DNA of 64,000 nt. It comes from an uncultured Bifidobacterium sp. Its GTDB lineage: Bacteria; Actinomycetota; Acidimicrobiia; Acidimicrobiales; Ilumatobacteraceae. This document shows positions 1,742 through 54,520 of the stretch, piece by piece (position 1 is the stretch's first letter; each line of letters opens with the position of its first letter). The notes under the pieces are model-generated. The model searched no databases. It saw only the letters and a program-made list of their open reading frames with translations, and was not told the origin of the DNA. Location of the stretch: the NCBI GenBank assembly GCA_964556145.1, contig CAZKVD010000001.1:8379-72378 (forward strand). Direction: 5' to 3'. The translations under genes and the position numbers were made by a program.

Positions 1742-1743
1742 AT

Positions 1744-9260: not shown

Positions 9261-9309
9261 TCCGGCAAAAAAAGTGTCCGCCTGCCGGGCCCTTGTGGCT
9301 CTGTAGGGC

Positions 9310-10977: not shown

Positions 10978-11006
10978 ACAGGTCGTGTTGCCGTGGTGGG
11001 CACATG

Positions 11007-11040: not shown

Positions 11041-11099
11041 GCATTCGTCTTTCGACTGGCGTCGTCCTAGTGGCCTCCGCTGTGTCTAGCGGCTTCGGC

Positions 11100-11822: not shown

Positions 11823-11824
11823 GA

Positions 11825-12628
11825 TCAGTGTCCTCCCTGCTGGCGCGCTGCGGCGCCTTCCTGTGCCTGAATTTCTCCGGCCGATTCGCCGAGATAAGCC
11901 TTGATGACTTCGGGATGCTTGCGGACCTCGTCGGGTGTTCCCTCGGCGATGATCTTTCCGAAGTCGAGCACGTAGATGTAATCGCACACGCTGAGCACGA
12001 GGCCCATGTCGTGGTCGATCAGGAACAACGTGATGTCCCGCTTCAGAATTTCGCGGAGGTGAGAACCCAACTGCTGCGACTCGACGGTGTCGAGACCGGC
12101 AGCGGGTTCATCCAACAGCAAAAGGTCGGGCTTTGCGGCCAGGCCTCGGGCGACGCTGACCAGCTTGCGCTGGCCGTGCGAGAGGTCGAGGGTGAGGCGA
12201 TCCTTCCGGGCGGACAGACCAAGAAGATTGAGCGCCCACTCGGCCTGCTCTTCGACGCCCACCTTGCGGCGCGGCTGGACGATGTCGGCGAGGAACGACC
12301 ACCACTTGGTCTCTTCGGCCATCACGATGAGGTTGTCCCACACCGTCAGGTCTTCGAAGAGCTCGAGCGACTGGAAGGTACGCACGAGGCCGTTGCGCGA
12401 ACGCTGAGCCGGCGTGGAACCCACCATGTCCTGGCCGCGGAATTCGGCCTTGCCCGATGAGATGTTGGTGAACCCCGTGATGGCATCGATGAAGGTGGTC
12501 TTGCCGGCACCATTCGGGCCGATGAGACCCGTCAACTTGCCTTTTTCCACCTTGATGTTGACGTTCGAGTTTGCGTGCAGACCGCCGTACGAAACGGTGA
12601 GGTCGTGTGTTTCGAGAAGAGCACTCAC
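11825..12628 (-). CDS. branched-chain amino-acid-type ABC transporter ATP-binding protein (LivG-like)
   Basis: Walker A GPNGAGKTT, signature LSHGQRK, and the C-terminal extension typical of LivG. Confidence 0.9.
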   Translation of the reverse strand: MSALLETHDLTVSYGGLHANSNVNIKVEKGKLTGLIGPNGAGKTTFIDAITGFTNISSGKAEFRGQDMVGSTPAQRSRNGLVRTFQSLELFEDLTVWDNLIVMAEETKWWSFLADIVQPRRKVGVEEQAEWALNLLGLSARKDRLTLDLSHGQRKLVSVARGLAAKPDLLLLDEPAAGLDTVESQQLGSHLREILKRDITLFLIDHDMGLVLSVCDYIYVLDFGKIIAEGTPDEVRKHPEVIKAYLGESAGEIQAQEGAAARQQGGH

Positions 12629-20224: not shown

Positions 20225-20225
20225 C

Positions 20226-39698: not shown

Positions 39699-39808
39699 GG
39701 GAATTCAACAGGGTACGGATGTCTCCTGACAGGACGTTTGGCGTGGTCTTTACTTCTCTTCGAAGACGTATCCGTCCGGAGGGGACGGTCGAAAGACAGG
39801 AGAATTCA

Positions 39809-40477
39809 ATGATCAGGACACTGTTGTGTGACGACCATGCGCTGGTGCGCGAATCGCTGCCGTTGGCGCTGGAGGCCGAGGGGGACTTCAAGGTTGTGGG
39901 GGCGGTGGCCACCGTGGCAGATGCCCTCGAGGTTGCCCGACGTGAGGACCTTGATGTTGCCCTCATCGACCTGCATCTTGCCGGCGAGAGCGGACTGTCA
40001 CTTGTCGAGGCCTTGCGCGGTACGTTGCCCGACTGTCGGCCGGTGATTCTGTCGGGGTTTCCTTCCGACGACTTGATCTACGAAGCCGGCAGGCTCGGCG
40101 CGTTCGACGTGATCGACAAGCAGTCGTCCACCCGCGACATTGCCTCACGCGTGCGCACCGCTGTCGGCGGGCGTCGAATGCTCGACGACTTCACCCGTCG
40201 TGCTGCAAAGGATCGTCTCGTGGGCGAAGGCCTGTTGACCTACAAGGAACTCGGGGCGACTGACCGGGAGATTCTCGCCTTGATTGCACAGGGCATGACC
40301 GACAAGCAGATCAGCCAGCGCGTGTTTCTGAGCGCCCAGACCGTTCGCAACCGCATCTCGCGACTGCTCGGTCTTCTTGGTCGCGACAACCGCACACAGC
40401 TCGCATTGATGGTGACGGCGATGGATCCGTTCGTTGAAGGTGTCTTGGTGCCTGCGTCCGCGACTGTTGGGAAGTAG
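39809..40477 (+). CDS. NarL/LuxR-type response regulator (REC + HTH)
   Basis: ORF 39719..40477, start taken at MIRTLLCDDH after AGGAGA. Contains the acidic pocket DD, a phospho-acceptor context ALIDLHL, and the LuxR HTH LTDREILALIAQGMTDKQISQRVFLSAQTVRN. Confidence 0.85.
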   Translation: MIRTLLCDDHALVRESLPLALEAEGDFKVVGAVATVADALEVARREDLDVALIDLHLAGESGLSLVEALRGTLPDCRPVILSGFPSDDLIYEAGRLGAFDVIDKQSSTRDIASRVRTAVGGRRMLDDFTRRAAKDRLVGEGLLTYKELGATDREILALIAQGMTDKQISQRVFLSAQTVRNRISRLLGLLGRDNRTQLALMVTAMDPFVEGVLVPASATVGK

Positions 40478-40482
40478 TCGAG

Positions 40483-40743
40483 GTGGAGAGCGACCCCGTG
40501 GCAACGGGTGACCACGATGTCGTGCGTCAACTCCGTGAGGCGCTTGATTCGCGCGTGGTCATCGAACAAGCGAAGGGAATGATCGCAGTTCAACGCAGGT
40601 TGCCGGTTGCGGCTGCTTTCGAGCAGCTACGTACCGAAGCGCGTCGACGCCGTGTCTCGATACATGTCGTGGCTGCAGAGGTGGTGCAGGCGCACGAGAG
40701 CCCGTCCGGCCCGGGGCTCATTGTCCGGCAAGGATGGGAGTGA
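40483..40743 (+). CDS. stand-alone ANTAR-domain protein (RNA-binding antiterminator domain)
   Basis: 86 aa. LDSRVVIEQAKGMIAVQRRLPVAAAFEQLRTEARRRRVSIHVVAAEVV matches the ANTAR pattern (IxQAKGxL...AF..LR). Confidence 0.7.
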   Translation: MESDPVATGDHDVVRQLREALDSRVVIEQAKGMIAVQRRLPVAAAFEQLRTEARRRRVSIHVVAAEVVQAHESPSGPGLIVRQGWE

Positions 40744-42307
40744 GTGTCAGCTCGGGTTCGTCGGCCAGCAGGCGCTGCAGTCGGAACTTGTTCTCGAAGA
40801 GCGCAACGAGCGCGTCGTCGCCACGCTTCAGGATTCTGATACCGCCGATTGCCTGAAGGCGGGGCACGCTTGCCTTGTCGGTCAAGCGAATGGCTTGGTA
40901 CACGGTCGGGCGGACCTCGATCGGTGCATTGAACTCGCCGGCCAAGCGATGCGCAAACACCTCCAACTGCAGGGCGCCGACCGCTGCGAGGATCGGATCG
41001 CTGTCACCCAGATCGGGGTCGCGCAGCACCTGAACAACACCTTCCTCGTCGAGTTGTGCGAGGCCCTTGCGGAACTGCTTGAAACGCCCCGAGTCGAGGG
41101 GACGTGCGGTGGCAAAGACTTCGGGCTCGAATCGTGGCACGCCGGGGAATTCGACGGCATCGTCGGCATAGAGAGTGTCGCCGATGCGCAGGTCGTTGGC
41201 GTTGATGAGGCCGATGATGTCGCCCGGATAGGCGGTCTCGATCGTTTCGCGGTCGTTCCCGAACGCCGTCGTTGCATACTTCGTGGCAACGAGTCGTTTC
41301 GATCTGATGCACGTGGCGTCCATTCCGCGTTCGAAAACGCCCGAGCACACCCGTGCAAATGCGAGTCGGTCACGGTGATTCGGGTCCATGTTCGCCTGGA
41401 TCTTGAAAACGAACGCCGAGAATGGCGAGTCGAGTTCGCGGGGCACGTCGTTCACGTCGGTACGCGGCGCGGGAGCCGGTGCAAGATCAACGACTGCGTC
41501 AAGGAGCATGCGAACACCGAAGTTGGTGAGTGCCGAGCCGACGAACACGGGCGTCGTGGATCCGGCCAGGAATGACTCGATGTCGACATTGGCACCGATT
41601 GCGTCGAGCAGAGAGCAGCCGTCGATGGCCGCGGTCCAAGCGGCACCCTCGGCTGCTGCCGCCTCGTCGGCCGGAACGACCTCTTCGGGGGAAAGTTCGG
41701 CACCGTGGGCAGTACGAACGAAACGGACGAAGTTGCCCGTGCGCCTGTCGATGACGCCCCGGAAATCGCCGGGGATGCCGACCGGCCAGGTGACCGGCGT
41801 CGGCTTCAGGCCGATCTGTTCTTCAACTTCGTCGAGCAGCTCGAGGGGATCGCGCCCCGGCCGGTCGTACTTGTTGAAAAACGTGATGACGGGCAGGTTG
41901 CGTGAACGACACACCTGGAACAACTTGAGCGTCTGGGACTCGATGCCCTTTGCCGTGTCGAGCACCATGACGACCGAGTCGACGGCGGCGAGTACGCGGT
42001 AGGTGTCTTCGGAGAAGTCGCGGTGGCCGGGAGTGTCGAGCAGGTTGAACGTGTGGCCGCGGTAGGGAAACTGCAGAACGGCCGATGAAATCGAGATACC
42101 TCGTTGCTTTTCGAGATCCATCCAGTCGGAGGTGGCCGCCTTGCGTCCACCGCGAGCCCGAACGGCCCCGGCCTCTTGCACCGCGCCTGCGTACAAGAGA
42201 AATTTTTCGGTCAACGTCGTTTTGCCCGCATCGGGGTGGGAGATGATTGCGAACGTACGCCGGTTGGCTGCCTGTGCCGACACGTCGGACTTTTGCTGGG
42301 GGTTCAT
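40718..42307 (-). CDS. prfC: peptide chain release factor 3 (translational GTPase)
   Basis: ORF 40718..42379, start taken at MNPQQKSD. Motifs RRTFAIISHPDAGKTTLTEKFLL, DTPGHRDF and NKYDR. Confidence 0.9.
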   Translation of the reverse strand: MNPQQKSDVSAQAANRRTFAIISHPDAGKTTLTEKFLLYAGAVQEAGAVRARGGRKAATSDWMDLEKQRGISISSAVLQFPYRGHTFNLLDTPGHRDFSEDTYRVLAAVDSVVMVLDTAKGIESQTLKLFQVCRSRNLPVITFFNKYDRPGRDPLELLDEVEEQIGLKPTPVTWPVGIPGDFRGVIDRRTGNFVRFVRTAHGAELSPEEVVPADEAAAAEGAAWTAAIDGCSLLDAIGANVDIESFLAGSTTPVFVGSALTNFGVRMLLDAVVDLAPAPAPRTDVNDVPRELDSPFSAFVFKIQANMDPNHRDRLAFARVCSGVFERGMDATCIRSKRLVATKYATTAFGNDRETIETAYPGDIIGLINANDLRIGDTLYADDAVEFPGVPRFEPEVFATARPLDSGRFKQFRKGLAQLDEEGVVQVLRDPDLGDSDPILAAVGALQLEVFAHRLAGEFNAPIEVRPTVYQAIRLTDKASVPRLQAIGGIRILKRGDDALVALFENKFRLQRLLADEPELTLTPILAGQ

Positions 42308-42371
42308 CGGACTACAGACGCTACCGACCGACGTAGTGTGACGCGGGGCAACGACGGGAAATGGGGAAGCA

Positions 42372-43454
42372 GTGAACAACGACGGAGTCTTTCAGCGGAT
42401 CGAGTTTTCCCATGGTCCGGCCATGGCGAACCGGCTGATGCTGGCCCCGCTGACGAACCAGCAGAGCCACTCCGACGGCACGCTGTCGGACGATGAGCAT
42501 CGTTGGCTCACGATGCGCGCCCTCGGCGGATTTGGTCTCACCATGACGTGTGCCGCGTCGGTGCAGTTCGCCGGAATCGGCTTCGCGGGACAACTCGGTG
42601 TTCACGACGATGCCCACGTGCCCGGCCTCACACGCTTGGCATGCGACATCAAGATGGCCGGCAGCGTCGCCATCGTGCAACTGCACCATGCAGGAAACCG
42701 CTCGCCACGTGAACTCACGGGCACCGATCCGCTGTGTCCGTCCGACGATCCGGAAACCGGTGCGCGTGCGATGACGAACGATGAAGTGCACGAGATGATC
42801 GGTGCCTTCGTTGCAGCAGCACGCAGGACGCAAAGTGCCGGGTTCGACGGGGTTGAACTGCACGGTGCGCACGGGTACCTGCTGTGCCAGTTCCTGTCGG
42901 CCGAACTGAACCATCGCGGTGACGAGTTCGGCGGGACGTTGGAGAATCGGTCGAGGCCACTGTTCTCGATCATCGATGGCATTCGCCGCGAATGCGGCGA
43001 TGACTTCCATGTCGGCGTTCGTTTGTCGCCGGAACGCTTCGGAATGCGGATCGACGAAATCATCGACGTCTACCGCCGTCTCGTCTCTGACGGGCAGGTC
43101 GACATGATCGACATGTCCCTGTGGGATTGGTCGAAGAATGCCAACGAAGAAGCACACGCCCACAGCCGGCTGATCGACATCTTCGCCGGAATCGAACGTC
43201 GCAACGTCAAATTGGCGGTTGCCGGAAAGCTGTACACCGCGGCTGCCGTCAGGGCCGTCATCGAATCGGGTGCCGACATCGCGGCAATCGGCCGGGCAGC
43301 GATCACGAACCACGACTTTCCGCACCGCATGCGTGACGACGAGGACTTCTCGATGCGTGCGCTCCCCGTAAGCGCCCAAATCCTGCGCGACGAGGGCTTG
43401 TCCGACACGTTCGTCGGCTACATGCGGAACTGGAAGGGTTTCGTCGCGGACTGA
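42372..43454 (+). CDS. NADH:flavin oxidoreductase (Old Yellow Enzyme family)
   Basis: 360 aa with motifs RLMLAPLTN, IVQLHHAG and GVELHGAHGYLLCQFLS. Confidence 0.85.
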   Translation: MNNDGVFQRIEFSHGPAMANRLMLAPLTNQQSHSDGTLSDDEHRWLTMRALGGFGLTMTCAASVQFAGIGFAGQLGVHDDAHVPGLTRLACDIKMAGSVAIVQLHHAGNRSPRELTGTDPLCPSDDPETGARAMTNDEVHEMIGAFVAAARRTQSAGFDGVELHGAHGYLLCQFLSAELNHRGDEFGGTLENRSRPLFSIIDGIRRECGDDFHVGVRLSPERFGMRIDEIIDVYRRLVSDGQVDMIDMSLWDWSKNANEEAHAHSRLIDIFAGIERRNVKLAVAGKLYTAAAVRAVIESGADIAAIGRAAITNHDFPHRMRDDEDFSMRALPVSAQILRDEGLSDTFVGYMRNWKGFVAD

Positions 43455-43474: not shown

Positions 43475-44314
43475 GTGGAGGTGAAGCGACTGACCGGTGT
43501 GTTCGGCGCCGAGGTGGTTGTCGACGACGTACGTCGCCTTGGTACGACCGAAGTCGATGAACTTCGGCGCCACGTCTGTGACCATGAAGTCGTCGTCCTG
43601 CGCGGACAAACGTTGTCGGTCGCCGAGCAGGTGGAATTGTCGCGTCGGCTCGGACCGGCCGGCCCGGTGCCGTTCATCGAAGCGAGCCCCGACCATCCCG
43701 AAGTCATCAAGGTCGTCAAAGAGGCCGGCGACGGTGATGCCTTCAATTTCGGCGGGGCATGGCACAGCGACTTCAGCTTCCAGCCCGAGCCCCCGGCATT
43801 CACCCTCCTGTACGCGATCGACATCCCGCCATTCGGTGGCGACACCTTGTGGGCCTCGATGACGGCGGCATGGCGCGGTCTCTCGCCCGAAAGGCAGGTC
43901 GAACTGTCCCGGTTGGTCGCCGTTCACACCGCGCGCGATGCGTACTCACGAAAGATGCAACCGCTCCATTCCGGACTGTCGGGGATGAACATTGTCTGCG
44001 ACGACACTGCCAATGACGCCGAAGCGCATCCCCTGGTGGTGACTCACCCCGAGACCGGAAGAAAGTCCCTCTTTTTCAATCGGGCTTATGTTCGGGACTT
44101 GGTCGACGTCGACGACAAAGAGGCGGCGAGGCTCCTCGAGTGGCTGCACGCACACACGACCGACGCGCGGTTCACTCTGCGCCATCGTTGGTCGGTGGGG
44201 GATCTCGTCATCTGGGACAACCGGTCGACTCAGCACTATGCGTTGAATGACTACGCCGGATTTCGTCGTGAGTTGCATCGCACGACGGTCGCCGGCGATC
44301 GCCCACGGAGTTGA
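43475..44314 (+). CDS. TauD/TfdA-family Fe(II)/2-oxoglutarate dioxygenase
   Basis: HxD motif WHSDFSF. Distal His context VIWDNRSTQHYA. Confidence 0.85.
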   Translation: MEVKRLTGVFGAEVVVDDVRRLGTTEVDELRRHVCDHEVVVLRGQTLSVAEQVELSRRLGPAGPVPFIEASPDHPEVIKVVKEAGDGDAFNFGGAWHSDFSFQPEPPAFTLLYAIDIPPFGGDTLWASMTAAWRGLSPERQVELSRLVAVHTARDAYSRKMQPLHSGLSGMNIVCDDTANDAEAHPLVVTHPETGRKSLFFNRAYVRDLVDVDDKEAARLLEWLHAHTTDARFTLRHRWSVGDLVIWDNRSTQHYALNDYAGFRRELHRTTVAGDRPRS

Positions 44315-44320: not shown

Positions 44321-45178
44321 ATGTTCCTGGCAATCGCAAGCACCGGTCGCACGGCAACGTCATACGTTGCCGAAGCACTGAACCATGTCGACGGGATTGC
44401 CGCGCTTCACGAGGGTCACTTGGGGAACGACGCAGGCTCCGATGTGCTTCCGATGGTGAATCTCGACAACTTCCAGTGCTTCAAGAGTCCTGAACGGGCG
44501 AAAATGGTCGTTTCCGAAAAGCGGAATCCCGAACTTCTCGAAGGCGTGTGTCGAGGCCTCGGTGTCGAGATGCTCGTCGACGTTGCCTATTACAACTCCG
44601 TTCTCTTGGCCGAGATGCTTGAACAGGTGCCGACGTCTCACGGTGCGATCATCATCAGGGACTGCGAGTCCTTTGTCCGGTCGGCAACGTGGTTCACGGG
44701 TACCGATCCGATGCCCGTCGGTTGGCCCGACCCGGCGAAGGCTCTCGATTCCCGTGAACGGTTCATTGGCCTCGGTCGACTTCGCCCATTCGATGGCGAT
44801 GATCTGCGCGAGTGGGCGGGTTGGGGTGCTGTCGAACGCAACATCTGGTTGTGGCGCGCAACAAACACCGTGTTGTGCAACACCTGGCAACGCTTTCCCG
44901 ATCGCGTGCACTTTCTCGATTTCAAGGAACTCATCAGCGATCCGACGGGCATTCTGCAGGGTCTGTTGGCTACCATCGGTCGTCCCCTCGTTGATGACCG
45001 CTTTGGCCAGCTCGAGAGGGCGCTCGTCGAGGCGCACCAGCGTCAAAACGAGCGGCGCGGCGGTTATCAGGTCGGTGCATCCGACACCTGGACCGCCGAG
45101 CAACGTCGTCTCTTGTCCGAGGCAACGAAGGAAATCGCGAGTCGAGTGGAGAAGTTGCGTGGCCGACGGGCTGGTTGA
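44321..45178 (+). CDS. hypothetical protein, sulfotransferase-like (P-loop-type STGRTATSY and RDCESFVRS)
   Basis: 285 aa. The resemblance to the 5'-PSB and 3'-PB motifs of sulfotransferases is by eye only. Confidence 0.4.
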   Translation: MFLAIASTGRTATSYVAEALNHVDGIAALHEGHLGNDAGSDVLPMVNLDNFQCFKSPERAKMVVSEKRNPELLEGVCRGLGVEMLVDVAYYNSVLLAEMLEQVPTSHGAIIIRDCESFVRSATWFTGTDPMPVGWPDPAKALDSRERFIGLGRLRPFDGDDLREWAGWGAVERNIWLWRATNTVLCNTWQRFPDRVHFLDFKELISDPTGILQGLLATIGRPLVDDRFGQLERALVEAHQRQNERRGGYQVGASDTWTAEQRRLLSEATKEIASRVEKLRGRRAG

Positions 45179-45185
45179 CCAAATA

Positions 45186-45407
45186 GTGGACATCATCAAG
45201 TCGGTGCTGTCGGCGCGGGGAGCCACCGACGTCGCGGTCTCGATCGACTCGGGAATGGGCAACCCTCCGGCGTGGGACTCGCTTGCCTTCGTCGAGATTT
45301 TCACGACCGTTTCCACGCGGCTCGGAATCGATGTCAGCGACGACGATGCAATCCACTTCATGACGGTGCGCGAAATCGTCGACTTCGTCGCCGATCAAGC
45401 CGGCTGA
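45186..45407 (+). CDS. acyl/peptidyl carrier protein (DltC-like)
   Basis: Tail of ORF 44562..45407. GTG 45186 lies 8 nt after the preceding stop. 73 aa with the phosphopantetheine-Ser context AWDSLAFVEI. Confidence 0.75.
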   Translation: MDIIKSVLSARGATDVAVSIDSGMGNPPAWDSLAFVEIFTTVSTRLGIDVSDDDAIHFMTVREIVDFVADQAG

Positions 45408-45415
45408 GGAGTCCC

Positions 45416-46933
45416 GTGTCGATTTTGCGTCGGGTCTTGTCCGATCGTTGGCGCGTACCAGTCGATGCCCCGGCTTTCGAGGGGCCCTTTGGTGCCGACA
45501 AAAAGACGGTCCTCAGCGAAACAGACGTCGTGTCACGACTCGCAGCGTTGCGTTGCGCGCTCATCGATGCCGGAGTCGGCAAGGGCTCCCGCGTGGGTGT
45601 CCTCAGCAATCACAGAGTCGAGACTTACCTTGCAGTGCTGGCCGCGGTATCGGTTGGTGCGACCTTCGTACCCCTCAACCCGAAATTTCCACTCGACAGG
45701 CTTCGCACAATTCTCGACCTCGCACAACCGAACGTGATTCTGGGCGACCCCGCGACGCTCGACGTACATCGCGAAATCGCCGACGGCATTCCGCTGATCG
45801 ACGTGTCAACGGTTCGGCCGATGGCCGAAGAGGTGGGGACGTGGAACGCTGCACTCGATTCAAGTGATGTCGCACCCGGTGACACCGCCTACATCATGTT
45901 CACTTCGGGTTCCACGGGTACGCCGAAGGGTGTGCCGATCTCGTACGGCAACCTGTCGGCGTACATCGACGGCGCAACGGCTCTTCTCGAAATTCCGGAG
46001 GGGTCTCGATTCTCACAGTTTTTCGACCTCAGCTTCGACTTGTCGATGCACGACATCTTCGTGTCGACGCGGCTGCGCGGCACTCTGGTGGCCCCGTCTC
46101 AAGTCGATGTGATGATGCCGGGTGCATACGTTGTGCGCGAGCGGATCGATGCATGGTTCTCCGTTCCGCTGTTGGGCGCGCAGTTGGGTGGGGCGACACG
46201 CAAGGCGGACTTTCCCGGGCTCCGATCGATGCTCTTTTGCGGCGAGGCACTGCCGATGGAAACCGTCATCGCGTGTCGGGGTTGGCTCGCCGACGGTGGT
46301 CGGATGTGGAATCTCTATGGCCCCACCGAAGCGACGATCGCCTTCACGGCCGCCGATGTCACCGATTCGACCCGAAGCGAGGGCAATGCGTCAATCGGCA
46401 CGGCCTTCGGCAAAAACTTCACCGCCTTGTTGAATGCCGACGGCACGGTCGACCTCGACCCCGACATCGACTCAGAAGGTGAACTGTTGTTGGGTGGCCC
46501 CCAGGTGTTCGCCGGGTACTCCACCGACGCGCCGTCGCCGTTCGTGCGACATGCGGAGACGTCCTACTACCGCAGCGGAGATTTGGTGCGTATCGACACC
46601 GAGGGTGTGTATTTCCGGGGTCGTGTCGACTCTCAGGTGAAGTTCCGCGGCTACCGAATCGAACTCGGGGAGATCGAAACCGTGGCCCGTCGTACATTCG
46701 GCCTGAAGACACTGGCAGTTGTGGTGTCCGGAGAAGGTGCGGGTGCTCGTTTGACGATGTACCACCTTGCAGCCGAGAACAAAGCGGACGCAGCGCTCGA
46801 TCTTCGTCGGCTCGCCGAGACGCTGCCCGCGTACATGATTCCGTCCGAGTCCGTCGGCCTCGAGGTCATGCCAACCAATCAGAACGGCAAGATCGACCGT
46901 CGAGCGCTGACAGTGCTGGCATCGGGCGGTTGA
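45416..46933 (+). CDS. stand-alone adenylate-forming enzyme (DltA-like carrier-protein ligase)
   Basis: ORF 45272..46933, GTG 45416 after GAGGAG. Motifs YIMFTSGSTGTPKGV, FDLSFDLS, NLYGPTEATI, YRSGDL, KFRGYRIELGEIE and NGKIDR. Confidence 0.85.
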   Translation: MSILRRVLSDRWRVPVDAPAFEGPFGADKKTVLSETDVVSRLAALRCALIDAGVGKGSRVGVLSNHRVETYLAVLAAVSVGATFVPLNPKFPLDRLRTILDLAQPNVILGDPATLDVHREIADGIPLIDVSTVRPMAEEVGTWNAALDSSDVAPGDTAYIMFTSGSTGTPKGVPISYGNLSAYIDGATALLEIPEGSRFSQFFDLSFDLSMHDIFVSTRLRGTLVAPSQVDVMMPGAYVVRERIDAWFSVPLLGAQLGGATRKADFPGLRSMLFCGEALPMETVIACRGWLADGGRMWNLYGPTEATIAFTAADVTDSTRSEGNASIGTAFGKNFTALLNADGTVDLDPDIDSEGELLLGGPQVFAGYSTDAPSPFVRHAETSYYRSGDLVRIDTEGVYFRGRVDSQVKFRGYRIELGEIETVARRTFGLKTLAVVVSGEGAGARLTMYHLAAENKADAALDLRRLAETLPAYMIPSESVGLEVMPTNQNGKIDRRALTVLASGG

Positions 46934-46940
46934 TCAACCG

Positions 46941-47990
46941 ATGACCCCATTGGCCCATGTCGTGACGATTCTGGCGGTTCTGCCGGTCGCTCATTTTCTC
47001 TCGCCCAGGGTCCGGCTTGCATTCGTCACGTTCGCCGGCGCGGTCTTCATGTTGATGCTCGCTCCAGCCGGTTTCTGGGTGGTTCTCGTCAGCATCGTCG
47101 AAGGCCTGATTCTCGAGCGCCTTCTGCGCAACCTTCCGAAGAAGTCGGCCGTCAGGCAATACGTGCCGTACCTGCTTCTCGTCAACGTGTTCACCACCGA
47201 TCTTGCCGGCGGCGTCTTTTCCGGTCAGCGGTTCGTGACTGCGGGTGTGGCATTCGCCGTTGTTCGCGTGTTCATGACAACCAAGCAATTGTTGGGTGCC
47301 AAGTCCACCACGGGCACGCAACGAGTCATGTCGCTCGCGGCCGGCGGATGGTTTCTGCCGGCGATTGTCGTGGGCCCGGTCTTTTCCGGCACGACTCTGT
47401 GGGACCAAACACGAAAAGACGCAGTGGAATCAGTGACGTCGCCGACCGAATTCCTCTATCGCAAGTTGTTCGGCGGTTGGATTCTGGCGGCTCTGTTGGC
47501 GGATTGGCTGGCGCACGAGGCAGGGGGTACGCATCTCGACAGGTGGACCGCTCCGTTCGTTCTTCTTGCTTTGTTCGGACACCTGTTCACCGCGTTCTGG
47601 GGACAGTCCCTCATTGCCGAATCGGGTGCCGCCCTTGCCGGATTCGACATTCCTGCAAACTTCAATCGTCCTTGGCTCGCGGTCGACATTCGTGATTTCT
47701 GGAATCGCTGGCACATGTCGATGGCGCGATTCGTCATGCAGTACTTCTTTCTGCCGCTCAACTTGCGTGGCGTGAACGCCCGTCTGGCGACCGCGGTGGC
47801 TTTCCTCTTCATGGGTCTGTGGCACGAGGTTCGTCCCGGCTATGTGATCTGGGGCTTGGCTCACGGTTGTCTCATGGCCTTCGCACCGAAGTCGGCCGAC
47901 ATCACGATCCGAACCGGGCGCATCATCAACCGTGTTGCAACGATCTCGTCGGTCGTTCTTCTCTCGTACGTGGCGAATTATGCGTTCTGA
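46941..47990 (+). CDS. membrane-bound O-acyltransferase (MBOAT; DltB/AlgI-like)
   Basis: 349 aa polytopic protein. FWNRWHMSMARF and GLWHE carry the conserved MBOAT His residues. Confidence 0.8.
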   Translation: MTPLAHVVTILAVLPVAHFLSPRVRLAFVTFAGAVFMLMLAPAGFWVVLVSIVEGLILERLLRNLPKKSAVRQYVPYLLLVNVFTTDLAGGVFSGQRFVTAGVAFAVVRVFMTTKQLLGAKSTTGTQRVMSLAAGGWFLPAIVVGPVFSGTTLWDQTRKDAVESVTSPTEFLYRKLFGGWILAALLADWLAHEAGGTHLDRWTAPFVLLALFGHLFTAFWGQSLIAESGAALAGFDIPANFNRPWLAVDIRDFWNRWHMSMARFVMQYFFLPLNLRGVNARLATAVAFLFMGLWHEVRPGYVIWGLAHGCLMAFAPKSADITIRTGRIINRVATISSVVLLSYVANYAF

Positions 47991-49050
47991 CCGTCGCAGC
48001 TTCCGTCGACACGTGGTTCGTCGCGTGGTGCTTCCACTGATCGCGCTGGCGATGGTTTTCGTTCCTTCCTACAGTTGGCTGCGTGCCGGTCGTGTGCCGG
48101 GCAAGTACGTCAACCGGTGTCAGGCTGACGTCTACGAGAGTGACGCGCCCGCGGCCGACCTGTTGTTGATCGGGGCAAGCCGAACCGGATTCGGCATCGA
48201 CGACGACCTCGTGGATCTGCGATTGTCGGCAGTGCAAAGCCATCGAACCGACAAGATCGTGTTGCTCGGCAACGCCGACTCCGATTCGAACATGGCGCTT
48301 CGGACGTACCTGCGTGAGCGTGGCGTCCCCGAAAGCCTCGGCATCGAGGTCCTCATCACCCGCGTGGCGGGGGAGTCAATGGCGCCGCGCTACGGAGCGT
48401 CGCTGACCAACCGCAGTTACGCGCTGTTCGGCGCACGGGCCTACTCGGGCTACCTCGGATCCCTCGTCGACAACGAGGTCTTGGGCTGGCGTGACGTCTA
48501 CGCGCGTTCCTACTTCCCGTCGCCGTTCAAGTTTTTCTTCGAACACCTGCAGGTCGGTTTCGACAATGCCTTGCGCGAAATCGACAGGGCGATCGACCCT
48601 CTCGGTGAATGCGACCGTACGGTTTTGCCGGCGTGGGGGCCGGTCGCCGCAGCCCCGTTCACCGAGACGACGCCACGTCCGTCCGACAGGAAGATCGCAC
48701 AGTTGAACAAGGAAGTTGCGCGCTACGTGAAGGTCAACCTCGACAGCCGGCGCGCATCGGGTGAACTTGCGGTCATGCGCGACATGGTTGACGTTGCGCG
48801 AAGCGCGGGCGTGAAGAACTTGTTCTTCTACTACTTCCCATCGTTCGGCGAGACTTCGGACGTGATGGATCTCGGTCGATTGGGAGAATTGATTCCGGGC
48901 GTCGACATGTTCGACGCGCGGCCGATCATCAGCGATCCGAACAAGCCCGGGCTCGACCTGCAGTACAAGGATCGGGCGCATCTCACCAAGTACGCCGCTT
49001 ACGAGGTGACGACGGACCTCGTGGATTTCTTGAAGGAGCTTGGCAAGTGA
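47980..49050 (+). CDS. N-terminally anchored DltD/SGNH-like acyl-transfer protein
   Basis: ORF 47932..49050. ATG 47980 overlaps the MBOAT stop. One TM helix, then LLIGASRTG (candidate Ser block) and a C-terminal DRAH (DxxH block). Confidence 0.55.
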   Translation: MRSDRRSFRRHVVRRVVLPLIALAMVFVPSYSWLRAGRVPGKYVNRCQADVYESDAPAADLLLIGASRTGFGIDDDLVDLRLSAVQSHRTDKIVLLGNADSDSNMALRTYLRERGVPESLGIEVLITRVAGESMAPRYGASLTNRSYALFGARAYSGYLGSLVDNEVLGWRDVYARSYFPSPFKFFFEHLQVGFDNALREIDRAIDPLGECDRTVLPAWGPVAAAPFTETTPRPSDRKIAQLNKEVARYVKVNLDSRRASGELAVMRDMVDVARSAGVKNLFFYYFPSFGETSDVMDLGRLGELIPGVDMFDARPIISDPNKPGLDLQYKDRAHLTKYAAYEVTTDLVDFLKELGK

Positions 49051-49178
49051 GGAAATTCCTCGTGGCGCACCCGCGAACCCGTGCCGTTGCAGCGTGGGTG
49101 GGGTTGATCCTTGCCGCCGCATTGCTGCTGCGCTGGGTCGAGCCGGCCGTTTTCGAATCCCCCTACAACAACTTCTGA
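49047..49178 (+). CDS. 43-aa single-pass micro-protein, DltX-like (C-terminal ...FESPYNNF)
   Basis: My own translation: VRKFLVAHPRTRAVAAWVGLILAAALLLRWVEPAVFESPYNNF*. The GTG overlaps the upstream stop (GTGA). It falls below the ORF-track size cut-off. Confidence 0.55.
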   Translation: MRKFLVAHPRTRAVAAWVGLILAAALLLRWVEPAVFESPYNNF

Positions 49179-49195: not shown

Positions 49196-50368
49196 ATGGG
49201 AAACCCGTGGTTTGAAACAGTTGCCGTTGCACAGCGCAGGGCACAACGGCGGCTGCCGAAATCCGTGTACGGCGCAATCGTCGGGGGATCGGAAAAGGGC
49301 CTCACGTTCAACGACAACCTGAGCGCGTTCGACGAACTCGGGTTTGCGCCTCACATCGCGGGTCTTCACGCCGGTCGAGATCAATCGATCACGGTCATGG
49401 GCCAGCAGGTGTCGATGCCGGTCGTCATTTCGCCGACCGGTGTGCAGGCCGTTCATCCCGATGGTGAGGTGGCCGTTGCGCGGGCTGCAGCCAACCGGGG
49501 AGTCGCGATGGGGCTCAGCTCGTTTGCCAGCAAGTCGATCGAAGACGTCACCGCGGTCAACAACCAGGTTCTCTTTCAGATGTACTGGTCGGGCGGTCGC
49601 GACACGATGGTGCAGCGACTCGAACGAGCAAGAGCAGCCGGAGCCAAGGGCATCATCCTCACCCTCGACTGGACGTTTTCGAACGGTCGGGATTGGGGCA
49701 GCCCGTGGATTCCCGAAAAGGTCGGCCTGAAGGAAATGATCAAGCTCGCACCACAGGGTCTCTCCCGGCCCAAGTGGTTGTGGATGTATGCGAAGACGCT
49801 CGGGCTGCCCGACCTCACGACCCCGAACATGGCCGCTCCCGGTGAAAAGCCACCGACGTTCTTCGGTGCGTATTTCGAGTGGATGCAAAGTCCGCCACCG
49901 AGTTGGGACGACATTGCCTGGTTGCGTTCGCAATGGGATGGCCCATTCATGGTGAAGGGTGTCTGTCGGGTCGACGATGCAAAGCGCGTTGTCGACGCAG
50001 GTGCCACTGCTTTGTCGGTGTCGAATCACGGCGGAAACAATCTCGACGGCACGCCCGCCCCGATTCGGTCGTTGCCGGCGATCGCCGACGCGGTTGGTGA
50101 CCAGATCGAAATCCTGCTCGACGGCGGTGTGCGGCGTGGTAGTGACGTCGTGAAGTGTCTTGCGCTCGGCGCGCGGGCCGTCATGATCGGACGCGCCTAC
50201 CTGTGGGGCTTGTCTGCGAATGGCCAAGCAGGTGTCGAGAACGTCCTGGACATCCTTCGCGGGGGCATCGACTCTGCGTTGCTGGGCCTTGGCAAGTCGC
50301 ACGTCAGCGAACTCAATCGCGACGACATCGTGATTCCCGACGGATTCACACGACAACTCGGTGTCTGA
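49196..50368 (+). CDS. FMN-dependent alpha-hydroxy-acid oxidase/dehydrogenase (LldD/lactate oxidase family)
   Basis: ORF 49040..50368, start taken at MGNPWFETV. Motifs SNHGGNNLDG and DGGVRRGSDVVKCLALGA. Confidence 0.85.
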   Translation: MGNPWFETVAVAQRRAQRRLPKSVYGAIVGGSEKGLTFNDNLSAFDELGFAPHIAGLHAGRDQSITVMGQQVSMPVVISPTGVQAVHPDGEVAVARAAANRGVAMGLSSFASKSIEDVTAVNNQVLFQMYWSGGRDTMVQRLERARAAGAKGIILTLDWTFSNGRDWGSPWIPEKVGLKEMIKLAPQGLSRPKWLWMYAKTLGLPDLTTPNMAAPGEKPPTFFGAYFEWMQSPPPSWDDIAWLRSQWDGPFMVKGVCRVDDAKRVVDAGATALSVSNHGGNNLDGTPAPIRSLPAIADAVGDQIEILLDGGVRRGSDVVKCLALGARAVMIGRAYLWGLSANGQAGVENVLDILRGGIDSALLGLGKSHVSELNRDDIVIPDGFTRQLGV

Positions 50369-50500: not shown

Positions 50501-50680
50501 ATGAAGCGACTCATCGTTCGCATCAACACCCGACTCGCGGACGTGCGCGAAGCGCACGACCACGGCGGCGTCGCGGCGGAATACGGGGTGCTGCTGGCCG
50601 GCATTGTGGCAGTGGTGGCAGTTGCTGCCGCGGCACTCGGCGGACGCATCGACGGAATCTTCGACTCGATCCTTCCGTGA
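50501..50680 (+). CDS. flp: Flp-family type IVb prepilin
   Basis: My own translation (59 aa, not in the ORF track): MKRLIVRINTRLADVREAHDHGGVAAEYGVLLAGIVAVVAVAAAALGGRIDGIFDSILP*. G/xxxxEY processing motif. RBS AGGAGA. Confidence 0.85.
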   Translation: MKRLIVRINTRLADVREAHDHGGVAAEYGVLLAGIVAVVAVAAAALGGRIDGIFDSILP

Positions 50681-51072
50681 TCCGTCGTCGTTCGGTCCCC
50701 GGGTCCAAGACCCGGGGACCGGACGATGCGGGGGTTGTGGCGGTTGAGTTCGCGCTCGTCGTTCCGCTCCTCATCGTCCTTCTCTTCACAATCATCCTCG
50801 GTGGGTCCGTGTGGCTCGACCAAATGCACCTGCAGTCGGCCGTGCGCAATGCCGCTCGAGTCGGTGCCGTTGCGCCGTCGTCGGCATGCAGTGCCGCGAC
50901 GGCGGACCTCACCGGCAACGACGTGGGAACCGTGACCTGCGATCTCCTCGATGACTGTTCATCGGGAACCGCACGAGTGCAATTGACCGCCCTCCAGACC
51001 ATCGACCTGCCGCTCGTCGGCGAAAGGAATGTGACATTGCATGCAACGTCATCGTTCGTCTGCAACCCGTGA
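50677..51072 (+). CDS. tadE: TadE-like pseudopilin
   Basis: Tail of ORF 50155..51072. The GTG overlaps the flp stop. Contains the TadE motif GVVAVEFALVVPLLIVLLF. Confidence 0.75.
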   Translation: MIRRRSVPGSKTRGPDDAGVVAVEFALVVPLLIVLLFTIILGGSVWLDQMHLQSAVRNAARVGAVAPSSACSAATADLTGNDVGTVTCDLLDDCSSGTARVQLTALQTIDLPLVGERNVTLHATSSFVCNP

Positions 51073-52012
51073 CGTTCGCGATGAGCGCGGCGTGATTGCC
51101 ATCATGACGGCAGTCGCGTTTGTCCCGCTTGCTTTCATGTTGGCCCTTGTTGCCGATGCCGGTCGCGTGTGGGTTGCGCGCGAACGTCTGCAGAACTCGG
51201 TTGAAGCCGTTGCCGTCGCCACCGCATCCGAGTGGGCCAACGGAGGGTCAAGTTGCTCGACACGTGCGCTTTCCTTTTTCACTTCCGATGGTTCGAGTCC
51301 GGACGGCACCGGTTGCTCGACCACGGGCACGCGACAATCCGGTGTCGTGTCGGCTTCCGCCGACGAAGAGGTTGACCTGATGTTCAGTGACGTTGTCGGC
51401 CGGTCGACCAGTCGTGTCTCGGCGTCGGCACGGGTGCGCGTATCGACGGCGTCGGCCGTGCGGGGACTGTGGCCGTTCGGTCTCTGTGCCGACAACACTG
51501 CGATCTCGGCTTGGATTTCGGCTGGGTTCCCCGAGGGTCGTCGGGCGACGATCACGTTTCAACAGCCCTCGCAACTGTGCGGCGGCGACGTCTCGGGTAA
51601 CTGGGCCGTGCTCGATTTCAACGGCGGATCGGTGTCGAACAGCGAGACCCAACACTGGGTCACGTCTGGTTATCAGTCGACCGTGACGGTCGGCGACGTA
51701 GTCAACGGTAGTCCCGGTGCGCCGTCAACCTCTCTCGACATGACGCCGGCGATCGGCGAGACGATTCTCTTTCCTCTCTACCGATACCCGCGCAACAACG
51801 GCAGCAACGCCAGATACACGATCGTCGGTTTTGCGACGGCACGAGTCGACGCGGTTCGCCTCACGGGTGGTGCCGCTCAACGCAGCATCACGATCACCTT
51901 CAAAACCGGGACCACCGCCTCGGGGGCAACGAGCACGGCCATGAGCGGGGGAAATTTCGGACTGACCGCATGGAGCGTCTGCTCCTTTGACGAATACGGA
52001 GTGTGCCAATGA
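51041..52012 (+). CDS. TadG-like pilus assembly protein (Tad_N domain)
   Basis: ERGVIAIMTAVAFVPLAFMLALVADAGRVWVARERLQNSVEA is typical of the TadG N-terminus. Confidence 0.7.
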   Translation: MQRHRSSATRDVRDERGVIAIMTAVAFVPLAFMLALVADAGRVWVARERLQNSVEAVAVATASEWANGGSSCSTRALSFFTSDGSSPDGTGCSTTGTRQSGVVSASADEEVDLMFSDVVGRSTSRVSASARVRVSTASAVRGLWPFGLCADNTAISAWISAGFPEGRRATITFQQPSQLCGGDVSGNWAVLDFNGGSVSNSETQHWVTSGYQSTVTVGDVVNGSPGAPSTSLDMTPAIGETILFPLYRYPRNNGSNARYTIVGFATARVDAVRLTGGAAQRSITITFKTGTTASGATSTAMSGGNFGLTAWSVCSFDEYGVCQ

Positions 52013-52617
52013 ATGTGAAGTCGATAGCCCGTCGCGCGGCGCCAGCGGTCGGCGTCTTTTCGCTGACCTTTCTCGGAGTCCTCGCGCTGGTGCCGAAGGA
52101 CTCGGTTGACGACGATGAACTGGTGCCCGTCGTGGTCGCGACGCGCACATTGTCCGACGGAACCGACGCGTCAGAAGTGCGCGGTGCGGTCGAGGTGCGG
52201 ATGGTCCCCGACATCGCCCGCAGCGAGGGTGCGCTTGCGGCTCTCGAAGCGCTTCCCGATGGTGTTCTTGCGTTCGATCACGTGCCCGGTCAGCAAATTC
52301 TCACCACTTCGTTCGCAAGAAACCATGTCGGGAGTCTCGGCGCGGATTTCGTCGCAGTGTCAGTGACGCTCGATCCGCAACGCTGGGTGGGGCCGTGGCT
52401 TCAGGCCGGGCGCATCGTCGACGTCTACGACACACGTGAACCGAACCCGGTACTCGCTGCCGAACGTGCGGTGATTCTCGATGCACCCGATGACCCGGAT
52501 GCGGTCGAGCTCGAACCGACCGAAGACACCGTCATTTCGCTTGGCGTGCCGAAGGACTCGCTCACCGAGGTTCTCGCCGCAGCCGAAAACGGCACCGTCT
52601 GGCTGGTTGGGCGATGA
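52003..52617 (+). CDS. CpaB/RcpC-like (SAF-domain) pilus assembly protein
   Basis: N-terminal anchor, then the VPVVVATRTLSDGT pattern. Located immediately upstream of the pilus ATPase gene. Confidence 0.55.
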   Translation: MPMNVKSIARRAAPAVGVFSLTFLGVLALVPKDSVDDDELVPVVVATRTLSDGTDASEVRGAVEVRMVPDIARSEGALAALEALPDGVLAFDHVPGQQILTTSFARNHVGSLGADFVAVSVTLDPQRWVGPWLQAGRIVDVYDTREPNPVLAAERAVILDAPDDPDAVELEPTEDTVISLGVPKDSLTEVLAAAENGTVWLVGR

Positions 52618-53828
52618 TCGCCCAGGACATCGCCCGCGCGGTCCGCGAACGTCTCGCTGCCATTCCGGAACGGGCGAACCTCCCCGATGATGAATTGCGC
52701 AGGCTCGTCGAAGAACAGATCGACTCGGTACAGCAGCTACCCACTTTCGCGGATGTCGAGAATCCCGACGGCGTCCGCCGCTCGGTCGTCAACGATCTGC
52801 TCGGATTCGGCCCGATCCAGGAACTGCTCGACGACCCCTCGATCTCCGAAATCATGGTGAACGGACCCGGGGAAATCTGGATCGAACGAGCGGGGACCAT
52901 CTCGCTCAGTGACGGGGCGTTCGAATCGTCGGAACAGTTGATGCGCATCATCGACCGTATGGTGCGGTCCTCGGGCAGACGTGTTGATCAATCCTCGCCG
53001 ATGGTTGATGCTCGTCTGCCCGATGGTTCACGCCTCAACGTCGTGTTGCCGCCGTTGTCGGTGGACGGTCCTGCGATCACGATCAGAAAATTCACCTCGT
53101 CGGGGCTCGGTATCGACGATCTTGTCGCATCGGGCACCATTTCGGCGTCGGGGGCCGATTTTCTTCGGGATGCAGTCGCTTCGAGAATGAACGTTCTCGT
53201 CAGCGGGGGCACGGGTACGGGCAAGACGACGGTTCTCAACATCTTGTCCTCGTTCATCGATCGCGATGAGCGCGTCGTGACGATCGAAGATGCCGTCGAG
53301 TTGACGTTGCGCCTGCCGAATCTGATTCGCCTCGAGGCACGCCCGAGCAATTCGGAAGGGGCCGGTGAAGTCAACATTCGCGACCTGGTGCGCAATTCGT
53401 TGCGCATGCGCCCGAACCGCATTGTGGTGGGTGAAGTGCGCGGCAGTGAAACGATCGACATGTTGCAGGCCATGAACACGGGGCACGAAGGTTCGCTGTC
53501 GACCGTGCACGCCAATTCGCCGAGGGATGCGCTCCGGCGACTCGAAACGATGATTCTGCTTGCCGGCGTCGATCTTCCGTTGCGTGCCGTTCGTGAACAA
53601 ATTGCCTCCTCCATCGACGTGATCGTGCACCTCGCCCGCGATGCACGTGGCCGACGGTTCGTCACGACCATCACCGAGGTGGTGGGCATGGAAAGTGACG
53701 TCGTGTCGACCGCCGATCTCTTCGCGCGTGACTTCACCGGTGTCGCCACCGAGACGTTGCCGGCATTGCAGACGACCGGCCTGGTGTCGAGTCGGCTCGG
53801 AATGCGCCGTGCACGGAGGGCCGCATGA
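52614..53828 (+). CDS. tadA: Tad/Cpa secretion ATPase (TadA/CpaF, T2SS-E family)
   Basis: Walker A GGTGTGKTT, an Asp box, and a His box (GHEGSLSTVHAN). Confidence 0.9.
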   Translation: MIAQDIARAVRERLAAIPERANLPDDELRRLVEEQIDSVQQLPTFADVENPDGVRRSVVNDLLGFGPIQELLDDPSISEIMVNGPGEIWIERAGTISLSDGAFESSEQLMRIIDRMVRSSGRRVDQSSPMVDARLPDGSRLNVVLPPLSVDGPAITIRKFTSSGLGIDDLVASGTISASGADFLRDAVASRMNVLVSGGTGTGKTTVLNILSSFIDRDERVVTIEDAVELTLRLPNLIRLEARPSNSEGAGEVNIRDLVRNSLRMRPNRIVVGEVRGSETIDMLQAMNTGHEGSLSTVHANSPRDALRRLETMILLAGVDLPLRAVREQIASSIDVIVHLARDARGRRFVTTITEVVGMESDVVSTADLFARDFTGVATETLPALQTTGLVSSRLGMRRARRAA

Positions 53829-54520
53829 GCTCGACGGTTCTGGCGGCAAGTGCATTCGGTGGTGCGGCGTCGTTGGGTGCGGTGCAACTTGCGCCCTTCG
53901 TTCGCCGGCGCATCCACGGTCGGCCCACGAACCCGGTCGACCGCATCAAGGCGATTCGTACCGAACGGGCGAGAAGCTCGGCGATCGAAGACCAGTTGGC
54001 GCCGGCCCTGCAATTGATCGTCGGCAACCTGCGCGTCGGGCGCAATGTCGTCGCTTCGTTTTCAGAAGTCGCAGAAGCCGTACCCGAACCACTGGGCGGA
54101 CTCTTGCGCGAGGTTGTGGCCGAGGCGAAGTTGGGCACGCCGGCCGGTGAAGTGTTGATGACGGTCGCCGAACGCGAGTCGAACCGGCACCTGGCGATCG
54201 TGGCATCGGCGCTCGTCCTCCACGGGCGCCACGGTGGATCTCTCGTTGAGATTCTCGAGACGGTCATCGAAACCGTCGAGGAAGAAGACCGTCTGCGGCG
54301 TGACCTGCGAAGCGTCACCGCAGACGGGCGACTGAGTGCCGTCGTGTTGTTGGCCATGCCTCCGGTCGTGCTCGTGTTCGTGTCGGCGATGAGTCCCGGC
54401 TACGCCGCCCCGTTGGTGACGACACCCCTTGGAATTGCGATGTCGGGGACCGCGGCCGTTCTTGGTGCGGTCGGCTGGCGGTGGCTGCACCGATTGGGCA
54501 ATCCGGAGATTGCGCTGTGA
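53825..54520 (+). CDS. tadB: TadB-like inner-membrane platform protein (T2SS-F family)
   Basis: 231 aa with TM helices at both ends and a cytoplasmic helical domain. Overlaps the tadA stop. Confidence 0.75.
   Translation: MSSTVLAASAFGGAASLGAVQLAPFVRRRIHGRPTNPVDRIKAIRTERARSSAIEDQLAPALQLIVGNLRVGRNVVASFSEVAEAVPEPLGGLLREVVAEAKLGTPAGEVLMTVAERESNRHLAIVASALVLHGRHGGSLVEILETVIETVEEEDRLRRDLRSVTADGRLSAVVLLAMPPVVLVFVSAMSPGYAAPLVTTPLGIAMSGTAAVLGAVGWRWLHRLGNPEIAL

Follow-up and report, generated by a model that had tools for sequence, protein, structure and literature searches.

Which system is encoded by a tight group of genes that recalls the dlt operon in a genome placed among the Ilumatobacteraceae (Actinomycetota)? 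The locus lies on a stretch of 64,000 nt (hereafter the window) of contig CAZKVD010000001.1, GenBank assembly GCA_964556145.1, positions 8,379 to 72,378 of the forward strand, and coordinates given below refer to the window unless another locus is named. An earlier note, made from the sequence alone, had described at 45186-49178 a complete five-gene relay resembling Dlt, with a carrier protein, an adenylating enzyme, a membrane-bound O-acyltransferase (MBOAT), a DltD-like protein and a microprotein. All five open reading frames (ORFs) and every motif quoted are present at the positions given on the + strand, but the set was not complete, since the unit begins at 44321 with a sulfotransferase-like gene and therefore comprises six genes. 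These lie on the + strand at 44321-49178 as six closely packed ORFs, of which neighbours overlap or nearly touch:

44321..45178, + strand: sulfotransferase-like protein, 285 aa, predicted to be cytoplasmic (PF13469 at the family level)
45159..45407, + strand: carrier protein, 82 aa from GTG 45159, or 73 aa from GTG 45186
45416..46933, + strand: stand-alone amino-acid adenylating enzyme, 505 aa (TIGR01733, PF00501)
46941..47990, + strand: short MBOAT, 349 aa (PF03062, E 6e-20)
47980..49050, + strand: membrane-anchored putative transferase of SGNH fold, 356 aa (AlphaFold2 model, Foldseek)
49047..49178, + strand: single-helix microprotein, 43 aa, DltX analogue (micro-ORF at the 3' end of the cassette)

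We conclude that this cassette is a genuine and tightly conserved variant that resembles Dlt and is separate from it. Established are its gene content, the family and fold assignments of its products, their conserved catalytic residues, an invariant adenylase specificity code and the strict co-inheritance of the six genes across phyla. In our reading the cassette is probably a self-contained envelope-acylation system of six genes, Dlt-like in its working and of a separate lineage (probability about 0.7). The earlier proposal of a Dlt-type relay in a non-canonical gene order is borne out by hidden Markov model, fold and residue tests, and none of the refuting results named in the note that computation could reveal was seen. 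Its view that the cassette differs from a canonical dlt operon also holds, all models specific to Dlt failing or scoring far under their cut-offs.

Inheritance of the cassette

Close relatives of the cassette (62-94% identity) all come from metagenome-assembled genomes (MAGs) of Actinomycetota, several of them Ilumatobacteraceae, and share the same neighbourhood. At 45-52% identity the TauD-type gene that precedes the cassette in the window is gone and an upstream ORF of 281-285 aa, which encodes the Sulfotransfer_3 protein, is still joined to the carrier gene. In metagenome loci seeded by the sulfotransferase alone, carrier and adenylase genes follow in 31 of 31 as far as the contig extends, and the SGNH, MBOAT and microprotein genes also follow on the longer contigs. 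The sulfotransferase is an obligatory sixth member of the cassette. The genes are inherited together across permuted orders, and the cassette is in this sense conserved as a unit. Examples of the orders found are as follows (ST, sulfotransferase; C, carrier; A, adenylase; X, microprotein):

L018: ST-C-A-MBOAT-SGNH-X
L020, L024, L025 and L026: ST-C-A-SGNH-MBOAT-X
L021: ST-C-A-SGNH-MBOAT-SGNH-MBOAT-X
L023, a Pseudomonadota MAG: C-A-SGNH-MBOAT-X-ST

At L021 (6912-11197) and L022 the SGNH-MBOAT pair is tandem-duplicated within the cassette, with a single terminal microprotein gene. The earlier note had placed the system in an actinobacterial-type genome; it is not confined to that group, and cassettes also occur in Pseudomonadota and Verrucomicrobiota. 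The hosts include the cultured alphaproteobacterium Aurantiacibacter odishensis (L026), whose cassette proteins are only 32-46% identical to their counterparts in the window, and an Akkermansiaceae MAG (Verrucomicrobiota; L027). At L027 (143-1599 and 5107-6103 of that locus) an integrase and a transposase gene adjoin the cassette, and the SGNH gene is broken into two ORFs through either a frameshift or an error of sequencing, an arrangement consistent with horizontal transfer and possible decay. The GC content of the window cassette (about 0.60-0.62) equals that of the remainder of the window, and a scan for promoters and terminators yielded nothing exceeding shuffled expectation.

Proteins of the relay

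The carrier passes PF00550 (24.3 bits, gathering score 20.8) and contains the motif AWDSLAFVEI reported earlier, with the phosphopantetheine Ser in WDSL (codon 45279-45281, Ser41 of the 82-aa form). The length of 73 aa reported with this motif is less probable, because in the alignment nine relatives begin at the position of GTG 45159, which favours the 82-aa form over a start at 45186. The segments P..WDS[LM].F and DDDA are kept in the aligned carriers of ten cassettes. Among NCBIfam models the top matches were general acyl carrier protein models, all under cut-off, and no DltC model was found at E <= 1.

The adenylase contains YIMFTSGSTGTPKGV, FDLSFDLS, GYRIELGEIE and NGKIDR and matches PF00501 with E 2.6e-58. 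Its score on TIGR01733, the amino-acid adenylation domain (273 bits), is above those on the DltA models TIGR01734 (207.2 bits, cut-off 559.85) and NF003417 (210.6 bits, cut-off 476), both of which it fails, and the fatty-acyl ligase models of NCBIfam score far below either kind. Its relatives in the PDB are adenylation (A) domains of nonribosomal peptide synthetases (NRPS) first, with DltA at E 5e-44. By both comparisons the enzyme groups with amino-acid adenylation domains and DltA, and not with fatty-acyl ligases.

For the specificity code, DltA and GrsA sequences from the PDB were aligned with the adenylases of nine cassettes (loci L001 to L025), and the mapping was validated by GrsA, which gave its textbook code DAWTIAAICK. 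The Stachelhaus code of the cassette, DLHFLCLIAK, is identical in all nine adenylases, which come from different phyla. The codes obtained for DltA were DLMTLCTVAK (Bacillus cereus, 3dhv) and DLMTMCTVAK (Bacillus subtilis, 3e7w). Six of the ten cassette residues are identical to DltA, Cys301 included; a Leu299-Cys301-Ala331 core is common to both, and Met, Thr and Thr of DltA are replaced by His239, Phe278 and Leu322. The enzyme has Asp235 and Lys517, and its substrate would therefore be an alpha-amino acid, as the earlier note had suggested. The combination L-x-L-I at positions 299, 301, 322 and 330 is typical of NRPS domains for small residues (Gly, Ser, Cys), and Leu236 with Phe278 is found in NRPS codes for Ala. 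Because of the code and these patterns, the cargo is predicted to fall in the size class of Ala/D-Ala, Gly or Ser; the code appears compatible with a small amino acid and does not by itself prove D-Ala.

The MBOAT, with its motifs FWNRWHMS and GLWHE, was rightly described as short, since its 349 aa are about 70 residues under DltB. Its only significant sequence matches in the PDB are to DltB (6bug and 8jem, E ~1e-13), and its score on the DltB equivalog TIGR04091 (83.9 bits) lies under the cut-off of 375. His258 and His295 align with the catalytic His289 and His336 of DltB, and WNRWH and [LFI]WH[ENQ] are kept in 10/10 aligned cassette MBOATs. The protein ends in SYVANYAF, without a fused C-terminal shuttle motif. 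Cassette MBOATs share a C-terminal S-[YFW]-x-A-N-Y, mostly SY[VIL]ANY, in which the Tyr stands 3-5 residues from the end; this segment might be a carrier-docking helix, as in DltB.

The ATG of the SGNH gene (47980) overlaps the MBOAT stop by 11 nt, and the encoded protein contains GASRT (as GASRTG) and DRAH, from which the earlier note had ascribed it to SGNH/DltD-type enzymes. No Pfam or NCBIfam model matches it, including DltD PF04914, and its family is small, amounting to 47 clusters in a set of 5.8 billion proteins and to 76 representatives in one of 1.8 billion. An AlphaFold2 model built with 46 diverse sequences (predicted local distance difference test score, pLDDT, 90; predicted template modelling score, pTM, 0.90), where a model from 20 close sequences had reached a pLDDT of only 74, consists of an N-terminal helix (residues 5-36) followed by an alpha/beta domain. 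The top PDB match of this model in Foldseek is DltD (7dxm_B, E 6e-4, probability 1.00, TM-score 0.41), followed by platelet-activating factor acetylhydrolase (PAF-AH) and PatB, both of SGNH fold. The ascription is thus supported, in that the model has an SGNH fold and DltD is its best solved match.

Across 46 distant relatives Ser67, His334, Cys47, Cys211, Gly65, Asp74, Gly115 and Pro117 are invariant, and the D-x-x-H of Asp331 and His334 is kept in 10/10 aligned cassette proteins. As the pair of invariant cysteines, Cys47 and Cys211, suggests a disulfide, the SGNH domain is predicted to be extracytoplasmic. The divergence from DltD noted earlier is also apparent, in the lack of any Pfam match and in an hhalign comparison with DltD that is not significant, although its alignment sets the DRAH of the cassette protein on the DTIH of DltD. 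The family profile, searched against the PDB, returned chance matches and AlgJ (E 0.37) and did not find DltD; a few distant members of the family weakly match AlgX, AT3-fused SGNH domains and AlgJ. As judged from the model, this protein has a DltD-like SGNH fold, is not a member of the DltD family and is a putative functional analogue of DltD.

The microprotein has a basic N-terminus, one hydrophobic helix and a tail ending in WVEPAVFESPYNNF. Its GTG overlaps the previous stop as GTGA, with GGAG upstream. Because of the basic N-terminus a topology with the N-terminus inside and the C-terminus outside is suggested, and Tyr40, in the predicted extracytoplasmic tail, is by analogy a candidate acyl acceptor. 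Searched against the DltX model PF12459 the microprotein gave nothing at E <= 0.1, and no other Pfam or NCBIfam model matched significantly. The earlier note had given the DltX motif as F-x-Y-N-x-F and compared it with the terminal FESPYNNF; the ending is correct and Tyr at -4 and Phe at -1 stand as in DltX, but the hexapeptide proper is SPYNNF and the Phe at -6 is missing. Position -6 is Ser or another residue, and never Phe, in 11 distinct cassettes, whereas in the cassette microproteins the Tyr at -4 never varies and position -1 is always aromatic, as seen in the tails FESPYNNF, FESPYAGF, VEGPYEGF, HESPYNGF, VESPYNEF, TESPYNTF, VQLPYAEY, VELPYAEY and VYIPYAQY. In the six frames of 358,610 nt (related loci and the window), P-Y-x-x-[FY] followed by a stop occurs 24 times and is each time the micro-ORF at the 3' end of a cassette, and the reading as a chance ORF was rejected; such a micro-ORF is present in every cassette with its 3' end on the contig, in any gene order. 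The gene is uncalled in public gene predictions at L018 (9014-9190), L020 (5128-5244) and L026 (13586-13711). The microprotein thus escapes standard annotation, and its variant motif xPYxx[FY] loosens the FxYxxF rule.

The sulfotransferase and the genomic surroundings

The sulfotransferase of the window scores 18 bits on PF13469 (Sulfotransfer_3), under the gathering score of 27, and the assignment holds at the level of the family: five of six members match, that of L021 passes over its full length with 29.9 bits, many relatives of 70% identity have a precomputed PF13469 match, and some of them have the name sulfotransferase at NCBI. Two conserved segments, the GRTAT loop (residues 9-13) and RDCESFVRS (113-121), resemble the motifs that bind the 5'- and 3'-phosphate of 3'-phosphoadenosine 5'-phosphosulfate (PAPS). 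When the family profile was searched against the PDB, the top matches were spurious (TRPV2), and the sulfotransferase domains of CurM (4gbm) and OLS (4gox) appeared at E 0.06-0.17, which is not significant. The protein lacks a signal peptide and membrane helices, and the putative PAPS-binding loop forms its N-terminus; it is therefore expected to act in the cytoplasm. Its strict linkage to a cassette that crosses phyla without glycosyltransferases argues that its target is supplied by the cassette itself, and it may perhaps act on the amino acid or on the aminoacyl-carrier.

The surroundings vary between loci. In the window the following genes adjoin the cassette:

43475..44314, + strand: TauD-family dioxygenase, 279 aa (PF02668, E 1.7e-65), possibly accessory and not core
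50501-50680: Flp-like prepilin
52614-53828: CpaF ATPase
53825-54520: TadB

The last three belong to a Tad/Flp locus that lies directly downstream of the cassette (50501-54520 and beyond) and also holds TadE-like, TadG-like and CpaB genes. The TauD gene abuts the sulfotransferase gene and is closest to taurine dioxygenase, below the equivalog cut-off; 1.2 kb from the distant cassette of L048, a TauD-type gene at 7187-8065 (- strand) is 34% identical to it. These TauD-type genes may be sulfur-recycling accessories. A role of TauD as an amino-acid beta-hydroxylase feeding the sulfotransferase was rejected, the protein being closest to taurine dioxygenase and the gene not core.

Elsewhere, cysD/cysN/cysC-like genes for PAPS synthesis follow the cassette in L018 and L019, which two sulfatase genes and one for a PG_binding_1 protein also flank (9231-11961; 1742-3307; 12702-14267), and the neighbourhood of L020 has a second sulfotransferase and a 2-oxoglutarate oxygenase. 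In L042 (2368-20843) the MBOAT and microprotein genes lie on the strand opposite those of sulfotransferase, carrier and adenylase, with a Peptidase_M23-fn3 protein encoded between the halves. The genes around it form a wall-glycopolymer cluster that encodes an AT3-SGNH acyltransferase, an ABC-2 permease, a GT4 glycosyltransferase, a Stealth protein, a UDP-glucose dehydrogenase and an epimerase. Peptidase_M23 genes adjoin the cassette in both L026 and L042. These contexts point to the envelope without singling out one acceptor.

Just after the micro-ORF, at 49196-50368, an FMN-dependent dehydrogenase scores 698 bits on the MftD equivalog (pre-mycofactocin synthase, cut-off 471), and no further mycofactocin genes are evident beside it. 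It is kept downstream in the Ilumatobacteraceae relatives and was rejected as a part of the cassette, being absent from distant cassettes. Upstream, 39719-42379 holds a LuxR-type response regulator, a small ANTAR-domain protein and prfC, with synteny in relatives down to 45% identity. Unrelated genes elsewhere on the window encode an MMPL transporter, a 555-aa RCC1-repeat protein, two adjacent cytochrome P450s and the alpha subunit of a Rieske ring-hydroxylating oxygenase (4334-6484, 9310-10977, 18914-21668 and 24854-26251).

Acylation model, alternatives and known systems

In the published relay an acyl group passes from a thioester donor to the His of an MBOAT, to the Tyr of a C-terminal hexapeptide, to the Ser of an SGNH protein and finally to a polymer (PMC12148441). 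In the Dlt pathway DltC acts as donor and the microprotein DltX carries the motif, which in acetyl-CoA systems is fused to the MBOAT (PMC12148441). Because the cassette has the layout of Dlt, we infer the same relay for it, with Tyr40, His295 and Ser67, and the chemical steps, cargo, sulfation target and acceptor are accordingly given here as a proposal. The cytoplasmic adenylase would activate a small alpha-amino acid and load it as a thioester on the phosphopantetheine of the carrier; the His pair of the MBOAT would pass the aminoacyl group through the membrane to Tyr40 of the microprotein; and Ser67 of the SGNH protein, with Asp331 and His334, would take it over and deliver it to a hydroxyl of an extracytoplasmic acceptor. 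A cytoplasmic sulfotransferase of the PAPS type would belong to the same pathway, its target being either the cargo, free or carrier-bound, or a precursor of the acceptor. If the precursor were sulfated, the aminoacyl ester could offset the sulfate charge, as D-Ala does with the phosphate of teichoic acids.

A fuller version can be put forward only tentatively, and as a whole it is rather unlikely: a horizontally mobile six-gene system found across phyla would install a sulfated or sulfation-coupled aminoacyl ester on a widely shared extracytoplasmic target by way of a P-Y-x-x-F microprotein, a new kind of acyl shuttle, the sulfotransferase acting on the carrier-bound or free amino acid and the target being peptidoglycan, a wall glycopolymer or the Tad/Flp pilus. 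Such a system, if real, would represent a kind of envelope modification without earlier description.

Several observations weigh against a Dlt-like envelope-acylation system. The structural match between the SGNH protein and DltD has a TM-score of only about 0.41, and hhalign of its family against three DltD sequences gave a probability of 0.17% (E 0.35). The microprotein fails the DltX model and is without Phe at -6. The variant at L042 has no detectable SGNH gene of the cassette family beside the cassette. Finally, the sulfotransferase has no evident place in such a relay, and a cargo of Ala or Gly would offer it no hydroxyl.

These points have to be set against what other explanations would require. 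An ordinary dltXABCD operon, horizontally acquired, rearranged and D-alanylating lipoteichoic acid (LTA), would agree with the name DltB that JGI pipelines give to the MBOAT, with the match to DltA at six of ten code residues, one of them the Cys selective for the D-enantiomer, and with DltB and DltD as nearest solved relatives. It is nevertheless scarcely credible, and was rejected on the failure of the Dlt models, the sulfotransferase and the diderm hosts: the scores are 207-211 bits for DltA against cut-offs of 476-560 and 84 for DltB against 375, no DltC, DltD or DltX model matches, the hhalign comparison with DltD is not significant, an extra sulfotransferase is obligatory, and the hosts include Pseudomonadota and Verrucomicrobiota, diderm lineages that are not known to have LTA. 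Hardly more can be said for an O-acetylation pair of the acetyl-CoA type acting on a polysaccharide or on peptidoglycan, like AlgI/AlgJ or PatA/PatB, with carrier and adenylase as neighbours by chance. MBOAT-SGNH pairs are widespread (PMC12148441), and the weak matches of a few distant SGNH members to AlgX, AT3-SGNH and AlgJ would suit it; however, carrier and adenylase accompany MBOAT and SGNH in every complete cassette, whatever the phylum or gene order, and the sole significant sequence match among solved structures is to DltB and not to an MBOAT of the acetyl type. Furthermore, acetyl-type MBOATs have a fused motif and no microprotein (PMC12148441), whereas the cassette MBOAT is short and the motif lies on the microprotein. 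The co-occurrence and the separate motif led us to reject this pair with bystander neighbours as very improbable.

The remaining alternatives concern the acceptor. The product could be a membrane lipid or a secreted small molecule, for instance a sulfated aminoacyl lipid, MBOAT and SGNH protein acylating a lipid head group or a metabolite. A self-contained cassette that crosses phyla without glycosyltransferases fits a universal small acceptor, a fatty-acid hydroxylase gene adjoins the cassette in L048, and the weak sulfotransferase profile matches to CurM/OLS (E 0.06-0.17, not significant) lean the same way. We regard this as quite unlikely, as the neighbours are often wall- or pilus-related, the two invariant SGNH cysteines suggest a disulfide and hence an extracytoplasmic site, and a microprotein with an anchored extracytoplasmic SGNH protein is known only from the acylation of envelope polymers (PMC12148441). 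The relay might instead serve the Tad/Flp pilus, with the pilin or a pilus-associated adhesive polymer receiving aminoacyl groups, sulfate or both. In the window and its relatives the distance from the cassette to the Tad genes downstream is 1.3-3.5 kb, a tad locus is found 2.3 kb from the distant cassette L025, and in A. odishensis (L026) the cassette stands inside the tad locus, between flp-rcpC-secretin-tadZ-tadA and tadG-tadE. On the other side, tad genes are missing from most of the other contexts that have 5 kb of flank or more (L018, L020, L021, L024, L027, L042, L045 and L048), the Ilumatobacteraceae relatives L011, L032 and L035 have no adjacent CpaF, and L025 and L026 may be related lineages, so that perhaps only two independent events are seen. 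As SGNH transferases are also not known to acylate pilins, a system devoted to the pilus seems unlikely.

Under the preferred reading of a Dlt-like envelope-acylation system, the Dlt architecture exists in an independent family that is shared by Ilumatobacteraceae, which are abundant freshwater Actinomycetota, by Alphaproteobacteria and by Verrucomicrobiota. Among accessible papers, a carrier-dependent relay of MBOAT, microprotein and SGNH protein has so far been described only for the D-alanylation of teichoic acids by dlt. The cassette sulfotransferase is without counterpart in any described MBOAT-SGNH pathway, and the envelope chemistry possibly joins aminoacylation and sulfation. For Actinobacteria the searchable literature yielded no description of a Dlt-like system, only an unrelated Lacticaseibacillus genome paper, and it yielded none of such a system joined to a sulfotransferase or to a tad locus, albeit with a prior mention possible in the supplementary bioinformatics of Schultz 2023. 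Because the cassette is present in cultured A. odishensis, the question is directly testable.

Compared with known systems, the cassette is nearest to Dlt. The five roles and their logic recur: both have an A-enzyme that stands alone, a small carrier and an MBOAT to which no shuttle motif is fused, and in both a one-helix microprotein bears Tyr at -4 and ends in an aromatic residue and an N-anchored SGNH protein has Ser together with D-x-x-H. Among solved structures DltB and DltD come nearest, and the A-domain code agrees with DltA in 6/10 residues. It differs in that its proteins fail the Dlt models, the motif is xPYxx[FY] and not FxYxxF, the MBOAT is about 70 residues shorter, the gene order is variable, a sulfotransferase is obligatory and the hosts are Actinomycetota (Ilumatobacteraceae), Pseudomonadota and Verrucomicrobiota. 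The published dlt genes outside Bacillota are likewise of Dlt type with a presumed non-teichoic acceptor, and by description the cassette is set apart from them by its failure on the Dlt models and by the added sulfotransferase.

Sulfotransfer_3 includes the CurM and OLS domains, which sulfate carrier-bound intermediates; the likeness is at the family level, with a gene here coupled to a carrier, whereas the window protein is below the Pfam cut-off and the matches to CurM and OLS are not significant. With PatA/PatB and AlgI/AlgJ/AlgX the cassette has in common an MBOAT, an extracytoplasmic SGNH protein and a C-terminal Tyr motif (PMC12148441), and PatB is among the structural matches. Those systems, in contrast, use an acyl-CoA donor, have neither carrier nor adenylase and bear the motif on two extra MBOAT helices, where the cassette has it on a microprotein. 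Within the broader MBOAT-SGNH class that works through an acyl-Tyr (Schultz 2023, Anderson 2025), the cassette shows the MBOAT His, a variant of the hexapeptide with Tyr at -4 and an SGNH protein with a putative Ser-His-Asp triad.

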